A stretch of 64,000 nt of DNA from Vicugna vicugna (Eukaryota), in assembly GCA_013265495.1 (NCBI GenBank), contig MU057711.1:372001-436000 (forward strand). Direction: 5' to 3'. A model generated the notes under the pieces. That model made no database searches. It worked only from the letters and a program-made list of their open reading frames with translations, and was not told the DNA's origin. The position numbers and the translations under genes were made by a program. Below, piece by piece: positions 3,323-13,569 of the stretch. Each line of letters begins with the position of its first letter. Position 1 is the stretch's first letter.

Positions 3323-3460
3323 AATAGGTAGTGGTAATGGTTGTGTAACATTATATTATAATTAATGACACTGAATTGTGCACTTAAAAATGGTTAAATG
3401 GCAAATTTTGTGCTAAACATATATAATCACGATAAAAAATATTTTTAAAAGTTAAAAAAA
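3323..3460 (+). mobile_element. L1MB/MC-type 3' end
   Basis: gtggtaatggttgtgtaacatt...cactgaattgtgcacttaaaaatggttaaa...aaatttt followed by an A-rich tail. Confidence 0.75.
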
Positions 3461-4549
3461 TCTTATGTTAAATTCTGGTCAAGATGGTGGAGTGGTAGGA
3501 CCACGAGCTTGCCTCTCCTCATGACTACAATGAAACCACAACTGATTGCTAGACAACCATCGAAAAAAAGACTAGAACCTAGCAAAGAAGATCATCTTCA
3601 ACTGGAAACATAAAGAGGGAACCACAGTAGGATGGTAGGAGGGGCGTGCTCGCCATATAATCGGGCCCCATACCTCCCAAGTGGGTGACCCACAAACTGA
3701 AAAATAATTAAGTCACAGAGGCCCTCCCACAGAAGTGAGAGTTCTAAGCCCCACATCAGGCTCCCCAGCCCTGGGCTCTGGCACTGGGAAGAAGAGACCC
3801 CAGGACATATGGTTTTGAAGGCCAGTGGGGCTTAACTCCAGGGGCCCCATGGGACTGGGGGAAACAGAGACTTCATTCTCTTGGGAAGCATACACGGAAC
3901 CTCACATGTGCCAGGTCCAAGGGCAGAGGCAGTGATTTCATAGGAACCTGGGCCAGGCCTGCCTGCTGGTTTTGGAAGGTCTCCTGGGGACGTAGGGGAT
4001 GGTTACGGCTCACCTAGGGGACATGAAAGCTGGTGGTGGACATTCCAGAAGTGTTAATCTACATGAGGTTTCCTGGAGGCTGACGTCTTGATTGGATCAT
4101 TAGCACCAAGACCTAGCCCCACCCAATAGCCTGTAGGGAAGCCTCAGGCCAAACAACATACAGGTGGGAACACAGCCCCACCCAGCAGCAGCCTTCCTAA
4201 GTCACAAAGGCCCCTAGACATGGCCCTACCCATTAGAGGTTCAGGACCAAGCTTCACCCAGCGGTGGGCAGGCACCAGCTCCTTCTGCCAGGAAACTTGC
4301 ATAAGCCTCTAGTCCAGCCTCATCCACCAGAGGCAGATACTAGAAATAAGAAAAAAAATCCCATATCCTGTAGAAGGAATCCACAAACACAGCCCACACT
4401 CTACATTAGACCAGCTGGACCCTGGCCCTTGGGTGACAAGAGATGAGTGTACTGCTGGGATGCATAAGACATCTCCCACAGACGGCCACCTCTCCAAGGT
4501 CAAGATACGTAACTAACCTACCTAAAAATGCAAATAGAAAGATACACAA

Positions 4550-5433
4550 ATGAGGCGGCAGAGGACTATCTCCCAGGCCAAGGTGCAAGATAAAATCCCA
4601 GAAGAGGAAATAAGTGATGAGGAGAAAGGCAATTTATCTGAGAAAGAGTTTAAAGTAATGATGGCAAAGATGTTCAGAGAACTCAAGAGAAGTATAGATG
4701 CACAGAATGACGTTTTCAGCAGAGATGGAAAATGTAAAAAATACCCGAACAGAGTTGAAGAATAAAATCATTGAAATGAATAACACACTGGAAGGTACCA
4801 AGAATAGTCTAAATGAGGCAGAAGAATGGATCAATGAGCTAGAAGACAGATTAGTGGAAATCACTACTGCAGAACAGAAAAAAGACTGATAAGAAATGAG
4901 GGTAGTTTAAGAGAACTCTGGGACAACATGAAGTGCACTAATATTTGTATTATAGGGGTCCCAGAAAGAGAAGAAAGAGAGAAAGAACCTGAGAAAAATT
5001 TTTGGAGAGATAATAACTGAAAAATTCCCCAACTTGGGAAAGGAAACAGTCGCCCAAGTCCATGAAGCACAGAGAGTTCTACACAGGATCAACCCAAAAA
5101 GGAACACACCAAGGCACATAGCCATCAAATTGGCAAGAATTAAAGATAAAGAGAAAGTATTAAAATTAGAAAGAGAAAAGGAACAAATAACATACAAGGG
5201 CGCTCCCATAAGGTTATCAGCTCATTTTTCATCAGAAACTCTACAGACCAGAAGGGAGAGACATGATGTATTTAAAGTGATGAAAGGGGAAAACATAACC
5301 AAGAATACTCTATCCAGCAAGGCTCTCCTTCAGACTTGATGGAGAAATCAAAAGCTTCACAGATAAACAAAAGCTGAAAGATTTCAGCACCAACAAACCA
5401 GCTTTACAACAAATGTTAAAGAACCTTCTCTAG
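4550..5433 (+). pseudogene. L1 ORF1p, frameshifted
   Basis: MRRQRTISQ..EKEFKVMM..; AEEWINELEDRLVEI; QEAQRV-like VHEAQRVLHRINPKRNTPRHIAIKL..YKGAPIRLSAHFSSETLQ. Confidence 0.9.
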
Positions 5434-5497
5434 TCATCAAACCATAAGAAAAGAGAACAAAAGTAGAAAGAGAGAGAGAGAAAAAAAAGACCTACAG

Positions 5498-5800
5498 AAG
5501 ATTGCTTTGGCAGTTTGGGGTCTTTTATGGTTTACATAAATTTTGGAATTGTTTGTTCTAGTTCTGTGAAAAATGCTGTGAGTATTTTGATACGGGTTGC
5601 ATTGGATCTGTGGATTGCTTTGAGTAGTACAGCCATTTTGATAGTGTTGATTCTTCTAATCCAAGAGCACAAGATATCTTTCCATTTCTTTGTATTATCT
5701 TCCATTTCCTTCATCAGTGTTTTATAGTTTTCAGAGTATAGGTAACCTCTTTGGTTAAGTTTATTTCTAGGTATTTTGTTCGTTTTGATGCAATGGAAAT
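5498..5800 (-). mobile_element. Inverted L1 ORF2 fragment (post-RT region)
   Basis: LYSENYKTLMKEMEDNTKKWKDILCSWIRRINTIKMAVLLKAIHR..FFTELEQTIPKF. Confidence 0.85.
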
Positions 5801-5858
5801 GTTTACACCAGTTATAAAATTCTAGTTTTGAAGTGGGAAAAAAAAAGGGAATGAAGGG

Positions 5859-6036
5859 CTGCAAATAGCAAAATAGCCTTCTTTCTTATGGGTGAGTTGC
5901 ATTCCATTACATATATATATGCTTCATCTTCTTTATCCATTCATCTATTGATGTGCACTTAGGATGCTTCTGTATCTTGGCAATTATAGATAATGCTACT
6001 TTTAATAGCTAGGTATATGTATCTTTTTGAATTAAT
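5859..6036 (-). mobile_element. Inverted L1 ORF2 C-terminal fragment
   Basis: gctgcaaat...cattccatt...catcttctttatccattcatctattgatg..cacttagg. Confidence 0.8.
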
Positions 6037-6082
6037 TCTTATTCTATGGTTAGCTTTATTCCTTTGATAACTATGTAAGTTT

Positions 6083-6099
6083 AAAAAGCTAAAGCTCTA
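6083..6099 (+). repeat. Left TSD of the NSUN6-L1 chimeric insertion
   Basis: aaaaagctaaagctcta, identical to 8544-8560; preceded by tt (L1 endonuclease TT/AAAA site). Confidence 0.95.
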
Positions 6100-6229
6100 G
6101 GGCTTTCTGCTGTGAAAGAGGGAGCGACTGTTTGGAAGTATGGCCTTCAGGCTGAGGTTGACTGAATTGATACCAGTGTGGTTTCCAGTACACGACAGAT
6201 CGCTTCTCATTCATTTTTTTCTCTGCAAC

Positions 6230-6462
6230 GTTTTATCTGCTTTAGGTAAACAAGAAGCGGAAATGAAGTTTGAAACTCTAAGTTGCTTGTCACACCCTCC
6301 ATCATTCACAGCTGTCAAAGTAAATACCCATTTAGCCTCAGTACAGTGTGTGAAAAATCTGTTATTTGATGAACTTCAGAAGCAGTTTAATGGATTAAGT
6401 TTTCCTGTTCTTCAACGTTCAGAGCTTCAGGATGTCTTACTTATTCCTGTCATTGGACCTAG
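6230..6462 (+). pseudogene. NSUN6: Processed partial retrocopy of NSUN6 (tRNA/mRNA m5C methyltransferase), approximately residues 26-103
   Basis: VLSALGKQEAEMKFETL-SCLSHPPSFTAVKVNTHLASVQCVKNLLFDELQKQFNGLSFPVLQRSELQDVLLIPVIGP vs recalled human IVTALGKQEAERKFETLLKHLSHPPSFTTVRVNTHLASVQHVKNLLLDELQKQFNGLSVPILQHPDLQDVLLIPVIGP; contiguous and intronless; no catalytic or PUA domain. Confidence 0.92.
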
Positions 6463-6932
6463 TTTTAAACTAGTTAGTTATGAGAACACTTCCCAGTGGA
6501 CATCTCCTGTGGAGGTACACTCAGCAACTCTTCTTCCCAGCTGAAGTACTCCAACCCTGCCTACCACACACCACAGCTCAGAAATGGGTCTAGAAGCCTC
6601 TTTTCTGACAACAAGGGAGCAGATCTGGCACCTGTCAGGGCTGTGACAACCACAGAACAAAAAAGAAGGCCCCACTCAACAACAACAATCACGGCAGGCT
6701 CTGATCACACCACCAGCCACACCCCCAATCAAAAGGATAACAGCCCACACAGGGAAGAAAGACATGGCAACCATCCATTCTAAGAACAGCCACTGCAACA
6801 AAGCTATTAGATGAACAGTCTACGCAAGAAAGGTCCCACTTTAAATAAAAACAAACAAACAAAAACCAGTCCTTCAAGACCACAGTAGATTACTGATACT
6901 CCTAAATCATAGAGCTGAGAAATATAAGTGAA

Positions 6933-7819
6933 ATGAAGATGCAGAGCAACCACTCCCAATTAAAGGAACAAGAGCAATCCTCTGGAAGAACGAACAATGA
7001 GATTGACCTCTACAATCTACTAGATCATGACTTCAAAAGAGAGATAAGAAGACTACTGAAGGAAATAATAGAGACTGTAAACAGCATCAGAGAATACTTT
7101 AAAAAGGAAATAGAAACTATAAAGAGGAGCCAGTTAAAAATGAAAAAACTTAATGGCTGAGACGATAGCCAAACTAAAGGCAGTCAAAAGGAGACCAGAT
7201 AATGCAGAGGAAAGAATAAGTAATTTAGAAGACAGGATAACAGAAGTCACCCAATCACAACAGCAGACAGAAAAGCAAGTAAAAACAATGAAGCAATATG
7301 AGGGACCTATGGGATAATATAAAGTGTGCCAACCTATGCATAATAGGAGTCCCAGAAGGAGAAGAAAGAGAAAAAGGAAATGAAAAGATATTTGAAGAAA
7401 TCATGACTGAAAACTTTCCAAGCTTAAAGAAGGAAATAGATATCCAAGCACAGGAAGCACAGAGGGTCCCAAACAAGAGGAACCCTTATAGACCTACACC
7501 AAGACATATTATAATTAAGATGGCCAAAGTTAAAGATAAAGAAATGATTCTAAAGGCAGCAAGAGAAAAACAGAGTTAGCTACAGGGGAACCCTCATAAG
7601 GCTCTCAGCTGATTTCTCTACGCAAACACTGCAGGCCAGAAGAAATTGGCAAGATATACTCAAAGTCTTGAATGAGAAAAACTGCAACCTAGGATACTCT
7701 ATCCAGCAAGACTATCCTTTAGAGTAGAAGGAGCGATAAAGAATTCCACAGAAGCAAAAACTGAAAGAATTCAGCAATGCTAAACCTATGCTAAAGAAGT
7801 GTTGAAAGGTCCACTCTAA
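6933..7819 (+). pseudogene. L1 ORF1p within the chimera, several frameshifts
   Basis: MKMQSNHSQLKEQEQS..; MRDLWDNIKCANLCIIGVPEGEEREKG..EEIMTENFPSLKKEIDIQAQEAQRVPNKRNPYRPTPRHIIIKM; ends ttgaaaggtccactctaa. Confidence 0.9.
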
Positions 7820-8543
7820 ATAGAAAAGAGGCAGGAAGACATAGAAATGAGAAAAGTGTAATTGGAAATGTGATAACTACAATGAGTTCCAAGAGAATAA
7901 ACATGAAGATGTAAAAAAAAAAAAAAAAAGACATCAAAATCCTAAACGGTGGTAAAGGGGAACAAGAAAATATAGATTGTTTTTCCTCTCACTTTTTTTT
8001 CTTTTTTCTCCTTTTTTTTTTTCCAGAATGTGTTTGAGCCTACATGACTACCAGTCTAAAGCAAACAGATATAGTAAGGGGCTAATATACTTGAAAAACA
8101 AGGTAACCACAAATCAAAAGCATATAACAGAGTCACAAAAGCCAAAAAGAAACCAAGCTAATACAAAAGAAATTTATCAAACCAGTAAAATACCATATGA
8201 TATCATTTAAATATGGAATCTAAAAAAAAAAAAGACAAACATTTACAAAACAGAAACAGACTCACAGACATAGAGAACAAACTTATGGTTACTAGGGGTG
8301 GGGAAGGAGGTGGGAAGGAATAAATTGGGAGTTTGAGATTTGTAGATACTAATTAATATATATATAATAGATAAACAACAAGTTCATACTGTTTAGCACA
8401 GGGAACTATATTCAATATCTTGTAGTAACCTGTGGAGAAAAAGAATATGAAAACAAATCTATGTAATTCATGTATGACTGAGCATTGTGCTGTACACCAG
8501 AAATTGATGCAACATTGTAAACTGACTATATTTCAATAATAAA

Positions 8544-8560
8544 AAAAAGCTAAAGCTCTA
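8544..8560 (+). repeat. Right TSD of the NSUN6-L1 chimeric insertion
   Basis: aaaaagctaaagctcta, identical to 6083-6099. Confidence 0.95.
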
Positions 8561-8723: not shown

Positions 8724-9447
8724 ATGCAAAGGACTTAAAATAACAAAAATTGTTCTGAAGGAAAAGAACAAAGGGAAAGGATTTAATTACTTGAATTCTA
8801 GACTTACTATAAAGGTTCAGGAATCAAAATGGTGTGGTACTGACCTGTAAAGAATAGTGTAACAGAACAGAGTCCAGACAGACCCACATATATACGGCCA
8901 TTTAATTTCCCACAAATTGTGCTGGAGGAACTGGATATCCTTATAGGGTAATGAAGACCCTTGAATTTTACTTCACACCATACGCAAATACAAAAAATGG
9001 ATTATAACACAAAATGGATTATATACCTAAATGTAAAACCTACAATAATAAAACTTCTGGAAGAAAACCTGCAAGGAAATCTTAGCTACTTTGGGAAAAT
9101 TTCTTAAATATGACATAAAAACAATATAAAATCATAAATTCAAATTCATCATAATTAAAACCATTCACTCTTCAAAATGTGACAATGAGTGTGTATATGT
9201 CCACGAATGACTGAAAAATTGTGCTGAACGCTGGAATTTGACACAACATTGTAAAATGATTATAAATCAATAAAAAATGTTAAAAAAAAAAGATCCTCTT
9301 AAGGAAACTAGAAAGCAAGCCACAGATTGAAAGAAAAATTGGCAATAAAAAATTGAAAAAAAAATAAAAAAGGACACTTATCCAGAAAATTTTAAGAACA
9401 CTTACAACACAATACTAAGATAAACTCATTTTTAAAGTGGGCAAAAT
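8724..9447 (+). mobile_element. Ancient L1M ORF2 3' region, continuation of 3270-3322
   Basis: gacttactataaag...tggtgtggtactg, cttcacaccatac, aaaacttctggaagaaaac, aagcaagccacaga. Confidence 0.8.
9178..9291 (+). mobile_element. Young L1 extreme 3' end (~115 bp)
   Basis: gaatgactgaaaaattgtgctgaac..ggaatttgacacaacattgtaaaatga..tcaataaaaa + poly(A); same 3' type as 42195-43482. Confidence 0.85.
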
Positions 9448-10818: not shown

Positions 10819-13569
10819 TAATTATTGATAGATATATATTTACTGCCATTTGAAAACTTGTTCTTCTGTTGATTTTGTATTTCATTTTTGTTCCTTTATT
10901 TTTTTGTTTTTCCTTTTTGTGATTTGATGGTTTTATTTTGTATTAAGCTTGTGTTTTCTTTTTTCTTTCTTCTTCTCTCTTTTTTTTTTTTTTGCGAGTC
11001 TATTGCACGTTTTTGACTTGTAGCTACCCTATTTTTCAAGTATGTTAACCCATTACTATAGATACTTGCTTTAGACTGGTAGTCATACAGGCTCAAAGAC
11101 CTTCTAAAAAAACTCTACATCTCCTTACTCTTCTCCCCAACATTTTGTGATTTTTAATGTCCTTTTTTACCTCTTCATGTTTAGCCTTTTGCTATTCATT
11201 GTAGTCATAATTACTTTCACAAATTTTTTTTGATTTTTTTTTTTAATCCATGTACTGGCTGATTTAAGTGATTTACTTTCCAATTGTGACTTTCTCTTTC
11301 CTATAGATTCTTGCTTCTTTTCTGTTTAGAGAAGACATTTCAATATTTCTTTTAGGGTAGGTTTAGTCTTGCTATATTCTTTTAGTTTTTGCTTGTTTGA
11401 GAAATTCTTTATCACTCTTTCTGTTCAAAAGAATAGACTTGCTGGGTAGAGCATACCAGGTTGAACATTTTTTCCCTTTCAGGACTTTGAATATATCTTG
11501 CCACACCTTTCTGGCCTGCAACATTTCTGTAGAGAAATCAGCTAATATTCTTATGGAGATGCCTTTGTAATTAACTCTTTGCTTTCCTCTTATTGCCTTT
11601 AGAATCTTCTCTTTATCTTTAACTTTGGCCCTTTTAATTATAATGTATCTTGGTGTAGGTCTGCTGGGTTCCTCTTGTTTGGGATCTTCTTTGCTTCCTG
11701 AACCCGGATATCTGTTTCCTTCTTTAGTTTTGGGAAGTTTTCAGTCATGATTTCTTCAAATACATTTTTGATACCCTTTTCTCTTTCTTCTCCTTCTGGG
11801 ACCCTATTCTGTATAGATTGGAATGCCTTTTACTATCCCAAAGGTCTCATACATTGCTTTCATTTTTAAAATTTGTCTTTCTGTTTGCTGGTCTGATTGG
11901 GTGGTTTCCATTATTCTGTCTTCCAGATTATTTATTCATTCTTCTGCATTACCTAGTTTGCTATTTATTGCCTTTAGCTCAGCTTTTGTCTCAGCAAATG
12001 CATTTTCTAATGTTAATTGCCCCCTCTTTACAGTTTCTAGTTCCTTTTTAGAGTAATGTGCATTCTACCAATAGCCTTTTAAAATTCTATCAGTATTTTC
12101 ACCACCTCCTTTTTGAACTCAGGATCTGATAGTCTGGATATGCTTGCTTCATAGTTTGTTCTTTCAGTAGAATTCTCTTGATCTTTTAATTGAGAGTGGT
12201 TCCTCCACTTCTTTGTTTTACTTATACTTCTCTATGAATTTAGGAAAAACAGTCATCTACTGTGATCACGAATGTCTCTTTTTATGTGGAATGTCCCTGT
12301 ATAGCTTCTGTGAGTTTAATATTTTTGTTGTGAAGGCTAGACACTGAGTATTCCTCCACAGAAGATTTCCACTGGTGCACTCTGTGGTGTTACTTGTCGT
12401 TGGTCATGTGGGGTCACAAAATACAGGTTTGGCATTGCCTTCAGCCCCACCTCAACCGTGGAAATTTAGGCAGTTGGCCCTGGTGCCCCTCAGTCACTGT
12501 GCTCACAAAGCCACTAGGGCAGGCCTGTTGGCACACAACTGCTGAGGTCAGGCACCAGGACTGCTGTCATCGTGCACCTGGACCTCCATGGGAGCTACCG
12601 AGTCAGCCCAGACCCCAGCCTCGCCTCTGAGTGCCTGCACCCGCAGAGCCAGCAGCCGCTACCTTGAGGCCACCCCAGCCACAGGAACACCAGTAACCTG
12701 CTCGGATGTCCCACAGACACTGAGTTTCCAAGTCACCTGTGGTGTTGTAAATCTGTGGATTGTGCAGCTGCTGGGACTCTCAGATTTCAGCCCTGCTTCT
12801 GAAGTTCTGGGCATCTGGGGATCAGCTCAGATTTCAGCCCCACCTCCGTGTGGTTGCAACACACTGGGGCTTCCTCACTCTCAGAACTTGTAGAGGAGGA
12901 GCTGCACCTACTGTGAGGACATCAAGAATGAAGCTGCTCTGGCAGGCCTGCCACTCCCTTTGAGCATGCAGGTTAATGATGGGGCTTCAATGGGGGACTT
13001 GGGCTCCTTCTTGTGCAGACTCCCAGTTGTGGCCCGGAGCACTCTCCAGCCCTTTCAGGCTGTCTCCACATAGCCAGCCCCAGTTCTCTCCCCAGGTCTG
13101 TCCTCTGAAGTCTGAGTTTCAGCATCCAGCTCCTGTGCCCACCAGCAGACATACATCTTGGGCTGGGGAATGCAGCAAGGTGGCACGGACTGTCTATGCT
13201 GGTCTCTCTTTGTTCTGCCTGCTGCAAACTGGCTGCTGCAGTCCCCTCTGCACTTCTGAAGCTCCCTTTCTGTCCCGGCTGATCTCTCCATTGATGAAAG
13301 TGCTTCCCAGAATGAGGGAACATTTCCTCTCTCACAGGTCCATCCCAGAAGCAGAGGTCCTGTCCTGATTTCTTTTTTTTTTCTCTTTTATCCTACCTGG
13401 TTATGCAGTGATCTTTCTTGCAATTTTGCAAGATGATTTACAAGAACTTCTGGCAGCATTCAGCAGGTATTCTGTGAGAACTGTTCCATATGTAGATGCA
13501 TTTTTAGTGTATTATTTGTGGGAGGAGGTGATCCTTCTATTCCATCATCTTTATCCACCCTTCCCTCCC
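10819..13569 (-). mobile_element. L1 5'UTR + ORF1 + inter-ORF spacer, truncated at the first codons of ORF2
   Basis: 5' end aagatgatggaatagaagg (reverse complement ~13535-13555); ORF1 ~11200-12240; spacer homologous to 8020-8185; ORF2 start atggcagtaaat at ~10850. Confidence 0.85.

Follow-up and report, generated by a model that had tools for sequence, protein, structure and literature searches.

Lineages of the retrotransposon L1 have repeatedly exchanged their 5′ untranslated regions (5′UTRs) for unrelated sequence, and the route by which they do so is still argued (PMC5753468, PMC13174262). Chimeras in which host exons are spliced to L1 have been catalogued recently, in human only, the best case comprising two independent insertions according to the main text of PMC13174262. 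Here, we describe such a chimera from a camelid. It occupies positions 6100-8543 of a 64,000-nucleotide stretch of the Vicugna vicugna genome (assembly GCA_013265495.1, contig MU057711.1, positions 372,001 to 436,000 of the forward strand; the whole stretch is referred to below as the window) and consists of intron-less exons of the gene NSUN6 fused to L1-derived sequence, the whole having been inserted by retrotransposition. An origin of the NSUN6-L1 chimera by splicing is well supported, and the chimera is best read as a multi-copy retroelement produced by the repeated firing of a source that has since been lost, rather than as a self-propagating family.

The closest described cases come from Law & Burns (Cell Genomics 2026, PMC13174262), whose main text reports 17 human L1 insertions carrying pieces of mRNA or long non-coding RNA at their 5′ ends, 6 of which end precisely at splice donors. 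In RAP1GDS1-L1PA2, the first such instance to those authors' knowledge, exons were joined to an intronic L1 with a disabled promoter by splicing at a cryptic acceptor located 15 bp before it, and two independent insertions resulted. The camelid chimera resembles this case in that first host exons lead from an exon donor into a short stretch before a promoter-less L1 (of 15 bp in the human case, a linker of 19 nt in the camelid), in that several independent insertions have distinct target-site duplications (TSDs), and in that a host promoter would substitute for that of L1. It differs in that the source L1 of RAP1GDS1-L1PA2 still resides in the intron and has both open reading frames (ORF1 and ORF2), whereas here the source is missing and there is no ORF2; furthermore, there are eight insertions in three splice forms instead of two insertions, and the set is camelid and much older. 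Like the human MAP3K13-, FHIT-, PALLD-, and CREM-L1 chimeras described in the same article, the camelid element has sense host exons that run to a splice donor, are fused to L1, and are flanked by a TSD, and, as stated there for MAP3K13 and FHIT, no source L1 was found in the introns of the host gene. Those four are single insertions with a near full-length coding L1, whereas the camelid element is multi-copy, retains only ORF1, and lacks 1.1 kb of the 5′UTR. The main text of PMC13174262 contains none of the words NSUN6, camel, alpaca, and HAL1, and a literature search on NSUN6 with retrotransposition returned two unrelated reviews and no mention of NSUN6 chimeras.

Two further systems are relevant. 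SVA_F1 (also CpG-SVA or MAST2-SVA; PMC4114917, PMC6928650) is the closest non-autonomous parallel, being L1-dependent and multi-copy with its 5′ module swapped for a GC-rich host first exon; the camelid chimera differs in having three host exons and an L1-derived partner. Moreover, SVA_F1 is described as a spread subfamily for which promoter function of the element has been reported (PMC4114917), whereas here onward spread from daughters is no more than a possibility. For the L1-derived partner, the closest label is HAL1, a term covering L1 derivatives that are said to have arisen independently several times in mammals (Kojima 2018, PMC5753468). The partner resembles HAL1 as described there in keeping ORF1, lacking ORF2, and being multi-copy, a likeness by description; an NSUN6 5′ module is not among the features described for HAL1. 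Against this background, the camelid set provides a clear non-primate example and indicates that the spliced host-exon route works outside primates, that it can rescue an element lacking both promoter and ORF2, and that one source can fire at least eight times, while its series of splice forms reveals the structure of a source locus that is no longer present.

Anatomy of the NSUN6-L1 insertion

The insertion, all parts of which lie on the plus strand, is bounded by a TSD of 17 bp (6083-6099 and 8544-8560, both reading aaaaagctaaagctcta). The two repeats are identical at 17 of 17 positions, with a local alignment score of 34 compared to a shuffle maximum of 24, and the target site is ttt|aaaaag; the perfect TSD and the TT/AAAA target claimed in an earlier note on this sequence were thus both recovered. 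An A-tail had also been claimed there. An AATAAA signal at 8538-8543 is indeed followed by an A-run, but the signal abuts the A-rich TSD and the poly(A) tail itself is almost gone.

The host-derived part begins with a leader (6100-6229) followed by a region, 6230-6463, that can be translated without a stop codon and matches residues 27-103 of human NSUN6 (PDB 5wwq/9imb; E 1.3e-33). Its best matches in the protein database, in a search that gave 340 candidates (261 at E ≤ 0.001), were camelid NSUN6 proteins with 86-87% identity, in agreement with the NSUN6 identity that had been proposed for 6230-6462. In the genome searches, which covered a 2.03-Gb assembly in which C numbers denote contigs (the window being on C699) and L numbers fetched loci, the parent gene was located on the minus strand of C3565, where 11 exon pieces align with a camel NSUN6 protein. 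The leader, recognized previously as such and no more, corresponds to the non-coding first exon of NSUN6, as judged from its match to the parent (71.5% to C3565:2078198-2078077) and from the exon border: it begins about 3 nt upstream of CTTTCTGC, the motif at which the match to parent exon 1 starts, and parent exon 1 ends with CTGCGAC|GTGAGT, at precisely the point of the join to the next exon in the copies. That next exon is exon 3 (6230-6382, residues 27-77; 88% identical to C3565:2075596-2075441). The intervening ATG exon (residues 1-26; coding part C3565:2077797-2077720), which has its own acceptor and donor, is skipped in all eight copies found in the genome. Exon 4 (6383-6462, residues 78-103; 94-95% identical to C3565:2071688-2071607) completes the NSUN6 part, which stops at the exon-4 donor, the parent reading CCTAG|GTTTGT. 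The joins between exons 1 and 3 and between exons 3 and 4 are exact, with parent acceptor and donor precisely flanking exon 3. The host part, as read at the joins of the eight copies, is therefore intron-less, in sense orientation, and extends from near the NSUN6 transcription start to an exact splice donor. Exact exon-exon joins together with an end at an exon donor argue for splicing and not for template switching by reverse transcriptase.

L1 homology does not start right after 6462, as had been assumed, but at 6482/6487, the positions from which non-chimeric relatives align. The 19 nt in between (6463-6481) form a linker that is present in all six full-length chimeras and nowhere else, and no origin was found for it. 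It is followed by distal L1 5′UTR (6482-6932). In non-chimeric relatives the 5′UTR has some 1,125 nt more on the upstream side of the position equivalent to 6487, so the chimera is devoid of the promoter-proximal 5′UTR; the linker is not part of the family 5′UTR, the relatives continuing there with different sequence. This proximal portion, about 1.1 kb, is replaced by host exons; its absence had been deduced earlier from a 28/32 match between 6493-6524 and the reverse complement of 12344-12375, which proved to be exact. Positions 6933-7870 hold a remnant of ORF1 in at least four reading-frame pieces, homologous to 12283-11277 of another L1 in the window; 7292-7576 matches Pfam PF02994 (L1 ORF1 RNA-binding domain-like; E 2.6e-19), and 7554-7724 matches PF17490 with 22.6 bits at a cut-off of 22.2. 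The subsequent inter-ORF spacer (7871-8189) contains an A-run (7913-7930), a polypyrimidine tract (about 7990-8022), and a splice acceptor, termed acceptor B, with the intron end at 8024. The element then passes across an ORF2-deletion junction (8184-8190) into the end of ORF2 and the L1 3′UTR with the AATAAA signal (8190-8543), a segment with counterparts among the L1 3′ ends of the window and of fetched loci.

Eight copies and three splice forms

Searching the assembly with the 363-nt NSUN6 part gave 10 candidates, all of which were scored; they comprise the copy in the window, seven further copies, and two parent exons. The census of NSUN6-bearing copies is thus complete for the NSUN6 part at eight in the genome. 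To determine their structures, the whole element was compared by BLAST with the fetched loci. The whole 2.4-kb chimera is present in L011 (C8000; 83-88% identity range), L012 (C12268), L013 (C2289, 375500-382500, element at 3418-5826 on the minus strand), and L014 (C12035), and L015 (C7895) contains the chimera without 6940-7397. L016 (C12330) consists of 6114-6462 joined directly to 8025-8548, and L017 (C1706, 1710500-1716500, element at about 1355-2050) of 6101-6246 joined directly to 8025-8548. Seven of the eight copies have their own TSD (11-17 bp, 0-2 mismatches) exactly at the element ends within unrelated flanks, which excludes segmental duplication. The TSDs of the other copies begin with AAAAA, AAGAA, or AATAA, and their tails are short or decayed. 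The 5′ ends of the copies lie within about 37 nt of each other in the region of the NSUN6 start, with no shared upstream transduction. The view that the chimera exists at several loci with different TSDs is borne out by these data.

Three splice forms are represented among the eight copies. In the first, found in six copies, exon 4 is joined to the linker and the half-L1, as we refer to the ORF2-less partner. In the second, L016, the sequence reads GGACCTAG|GATGTG, the end of exon 4 being joined to acceptor B. In the third, L017, it reads GCTTTAG|GATGTG, and here a cryptic donor within exon 3 (TTTAG|GTAAAC at 6246|6247, with the GT 17 nt into the exon) is joined to the same acceptor. In relatives, acceptor B consists of a long polypyrimidine tract followed by TTTTTAG|GATGTG, and the join lies at 8025. 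Splice sites in L1 sense RNA are known to be used before reinsertion in the case of spliced integrated retrotransposed elements (SpIREs), L1 exon-trapping, and premature polyadenylation; the use of acceptor B in the spacer by L016 and L017 is of this kind, and the ORF2 deletion, whose boundaries have no GT-AG, is unlike it. The second form is informative about the template. L016 needs an intact exon-4 donor, and the processed chimeras, which read CCTAG|TTTT at the end of exon 4, offer no in-register GT, so the template of L016 must still have had intron sequence downstream of exon 4. A deletion at microhomology could mimic L016, TAG being present on both sides, but it is unlikely that both of its ends would fall by chance on a donor and an acceptor that are used.

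All eight copies stem from one source half-L1. When a tree was built from the L1 part (16 rows, 2,082 columns), a branch with 100/100 support separated the six full-length chimeras from 10 non-chimeric relatives (stem 0.026, tips 0.044-0.105), and 40 marker sites separate the chimeric from the non-chimeric rows. For the two short copies, the 3′ 530 nt are informative: L016 has 4/4 and L017 3/4 of the chimera markers in this segment, compared to 0-1/4 in six non-chimeric copies, and a branch with 93/89 support sets the non-chimeric copies apart. Within the chimeric group, the L1-part tree is close to a star, with inner forks mostly under 80. The pairing of L011 with L013, and other pairings involving L013, were considered as signs of descent and rejected, since almost all of the shared differences are A>G or T>C at CpG sites and represent shared CpG retention. 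The window copy, L011, and L012 have a 2-nt deletion and a substitution in exon 3 in common, which find no echo in the 2-kb L1 part.

The copies are decayed. The longest ATG-started ORF in the L1 part of the chimeras has at most 101 amino acids, the best in the 12 other of the 18 rows having 211, and ORF1 is broken in every chimera examined. Tip lengths of 0.04-0.10 substitutions per site correspond, roughly, to tens of millions of years at commonly quoted mammalian neutral rates. From these sequence comparisons, the set reads as an old burst from one source, of which the window copy would be one dead daughter. Among sequencing runs, 20 rows from 13 studies contained 5950-6560 or part of it, with no RNA run among those listed, and 14 rows with 5 coded organism labels contained it at 0.57-0.84 of the sampled words.

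Further candidate members of the set are 5′-truncated. The chimera-type T is found in 8 of the 53 genome matches to the ORF2-deletion junction, five of them at new places (C841, C4104, C6191, C6334, and C10307). A second marker motif gave 299 matches; among the 100 matches listed, those on C4104 and C841 also have both chimera-type bases. The copy on C4104 starts at the equivalent of 6685, and that on C841 begins 3′ of the equivalent of about 6847. Including such 5′-truncated members, the chimeric set probably comprises 10-13 copies, of which roughly half have the full length.

Individual copies show some peculiarities. L013 has kept many CpGs in its 5′ kilobase, with an observed/expected CpG ratio of 0.57-0.58 compared to 0.07 in one flank, which suggests long-term protection from germline methylation at that single copy. 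L017 has 12 CpGs in its 141-nt leader; its region is GC-rich (GC 0.5-0.66) and CpG-moderate, and the retention may be regional. L015 (C7895:890500-896500) features a 33-nt tandem duplication in the NSUN6 leader, and extra L1 3′-end pieces are located just downstream of it.

Origin of the chimeric copies

Beyond the observed anatomy, exact donor use, shared source, independent insertions, and decay of the copies, the events that produced them would have run as follows. An ancestral camelid locus would have carried NSUN6 exons 1, 3, and 4 and then an intron, in which a sense-oriented, 5′-truncated half-L1 with ORF1 but no ORF2 was presumably located. Transcription would have started at the NSUN6 start, and NSUN6 donors would have been spliced to acceptors located inside the half-L1 or immediately before it; the linker would presumably represent the stretch of intron from a cryptic acceptor to the truncated half-L1. 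After polyadenylation at the L1 signal, the transcripts would have been reverse transcribed into new sites by L1 proteins acting in trans, as must be the case for a partner without ORF2, and at least eight such insertions would have given rise to the three splice forms. We consider it likely that spliced NSUN6/half-L1 transcripts from one lost intron-bearing source were repeatedly retrotransposed in this manner. Of the model in the earlier note, in which an NSUN6 transcript was spliced into an intronic L1, the splicing has been substantiated by the exact joins and the end at a donor, but no sense L1 or half-L1 with 5′UTR or ORF1 was found in NSUN6 introns; a sense L1 had specifically been expected in the intron after exon 4.

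A number of observations weigh against an intron-bearing source of this type. Neither the 4.8-kb intron after exon 4 nor 150 kb around NSUN6 shows homology to the half-L1 5′UTR or ORF1, and no empty site for a source was found in the assembly. A 27-mer combining the linker with the L1 start (≤3 mismatches) matched only the six chimeras, with 0 matches of the control, and an 891-nt query comprising the end of intron 3, exon 4, and the start of intron 4 retrieved only NSUN6 itself and the exon-4 part of seven copies. The acceptor before the linker, which we infer to have been cryptic, is not visible because the assembly contains no source locus. The leaders of the copies are only 72-78% identical to parent exon 1 (C3565:2078198-2078059), with a copy-to-copy mean of 80%; in the 236 nt of exons 3-4, identity is 87.7-91.9% between copies and parent and 86.6-92.6% among the copies. 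Either the parent 5′UTR exon evolved unusually fast or the source possessed a different version of it. The seven copies carrying exons 3-4, L016 included, differ from today's NSUN6 at seven shared sites, three of which alter two codons (both non-synonymous, T becoming A and H becoming C), so a working NSUN6 allele is unlikely to have been the direct source. Finally, no TSD was detectable at the element ends of L016.

The shared changes also bear on the nature of the source. Mammalian NSUN6 has TT at the first of these residues in 81 of 81 proteins and H at the second in 77 of 81 (81 of 120 NSUN6 proteins matched the anchor), so that these changes arose in the source. At a fourth shared site, the copies keep the T common in mammals (73/81), the Camelus and Vicugna proteins sharing an A; this one site suggests that capture of the NSUN6 part predates the most recent ancestor shared by living camelids. 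Private change amounts to 2% in the NSUN6 part compared to 1.9% (40 sites) in the L1 part, which fits a unit evolving neutrally as a whole before the burst. These substitutions make it probable that the source was not the working gene but a copy of its 5′ region that evolved neutrally, with a duplicate and a partly processed retrocopy both being compatible. As the introns flanking exon 4 were retrieved from the gene itself only, neither an NSUN6 5′ duplicate nor an intron-keeping retrocopy is present in the assembly. A better parent for the leader was sought with the CpG-rich leader of L017, but only copies of the family were found. The linker gave no origin above chance: an 18-mer (≤1 mismatch) had 20 matches, six of them the chimeras, compared to 14 for the control, and a linker-derived 22-mer (≤3 mismatches) had 23 compared to 27.

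Promoter function of SVA_F1 has been linked to its MAST2 part. By analogy, the exon-1 module of the chimera could be a portable internal promoter from which daughters spawned further copies, forming a self-propagating family; we regard this as unlikely. It would account for the 5′ ends lying within about 37 nt of each other without a shared upstream transduction and for the presence in all copies of changes absent from the gene, as expected for a retrocopy master; the leader, moreover, was CpG-rich, L017 still holding 12 CpGs in 141 nt (evidence of composition only), and the window copy, L011, and L012 share the exon-3 deletion and substitution. The requirement of L016 for an intact exon-4 donor is, however, incompatible with processed copies reading CCTAG|TTTT. 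In addition, the 2-kb L1 part contains no robust nested groups once the L013 pairings are recognized as retained CpGs, the copies are without promoter sequence upstream of the start, such as the CCGGAAG just 5′ of exon 1, and no plausible master exists among the copies examined. L013 was considered for this role on account of its CpG retention and rejected, because relative to other copies it lacks about 28 nt at the 5′ end. The suggestion that an NSUN6 promoter drives the family is not upheld in the self-propagating sense, considering both the missing upstream sequence and the near-star radiation from one source. There is a small chance that the chimera, with exon 1 as a portable promoter, was once self-transcribing and mobilized in trans, or, in a related version, that an intron-bearing retrocopy served as master and was alternatively spliced before each insertion. 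If true, the portable-promoter version would offer a natural snapshot of L1-type elements swapping their 5′UTR for host sequence.

Trans-splicing of NSUN6 pre-mRNA to a half-L1 transcript from elsewhere, followed by retrotransposition, appears improbable. It would explain why NSUN6 contains no half-L1 today, and the main text of Law & Burns raises this option for human chimeras without a source L1 (PMC13174262); the 4.8-kb intron is, however, short, unlike the long introns tied to the trans model in that text. More importantly, three different joints all involve one source half-L1, and repeated trans-splicing to one copy out of at least 53 is unlikely; the changes common to the NSUN6 exons likewise indicate one physical source unit. 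The earlier note had opposed template switching to a spliced source, and the exact exon-donor ends favor the latter: a switch from half-L1 RNA to NSUN6 mRNA during target-primed reverse transcription (U6-L1 type), or chance nesting by an NSUN6 pseudogene, is highly improbable, for although chimeras with cellular RNAs are known and a linker of unfound origin sits at the joint, that joint lies at the exact exon donor in seven copies, two additional joints combine a GT donor with a canonical acceptor, a single switch would still require a transcribed master, and segmental duplication is excluded by unrelated flanks and own TSDs in seven of eight copies.

The ORF2-deleted partner and its surroundings

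ORF2 is absent from the chimera, the element going from the inter-ORF spacer (to about 8190) directly to the L1 3′ end (from 8184). This is not the result of an ordinary L1 losing ORF2 in the same event, as might have been supposed; the partner is a member of a pre-existing multi-copy ORF2-deleted family. Specifically, five non-chimeric loci align continuously over 6487-8542 (in two cases no further than 8507 and 8527) with 81-85% identity across the ORF2 gap. Three other loci, full-length L1s running on toward ORF2, exit the alignment at 8190, and L1 3′ ends enter it at 8184. A 33-mer spanning the deletion junction had 53 matches in the genome (≤3 mismatches) compared to 0 for the control, a number that is a lower bound, the copies being about 8-10% diverged. 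Splicing was considered as the cause of the deletion and ruled out, since the boundaries (ACCA|GAAAAATACC) show A-rich microhomology and no GT-AG.

The half-L1 family occurs genome-wide and features a full 5′UTR of about 1.5 kb, ORF1, the spacer, and the 3′ end; examples are L033 to L037 (C6437:675000-681000, C5765, C3316, C8245, and C10646). In the main text of a survey of Camelus transposable elements (PMC8605555), HAL1 has 0 occurrences, and ORF1, "chimer", and NSUN6 are likewise absent. The set thus points to a camelid family of ORF1-only L1 derivatives that is unmentioned in one Camelus repeat survey, no literature search having been made for other mammals. On C1292, two junctions (1780994-1781026 and 1786097-1786129) are situated 5.1 kb apart and have the same private variant, which probably reflects a local duplication.

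Within the window, positions 10981-12375 on the minus strand accommodate another L1 with 5′UTR, ORF1, and spacer, which is about 76-79% identical to the L1 part of the chimera. The chimera itself is enclosed by an older plus-strand L1, with ORF1-like sequence upstream (4859-5389) and an L1 3′ end downstream (9207-9277).

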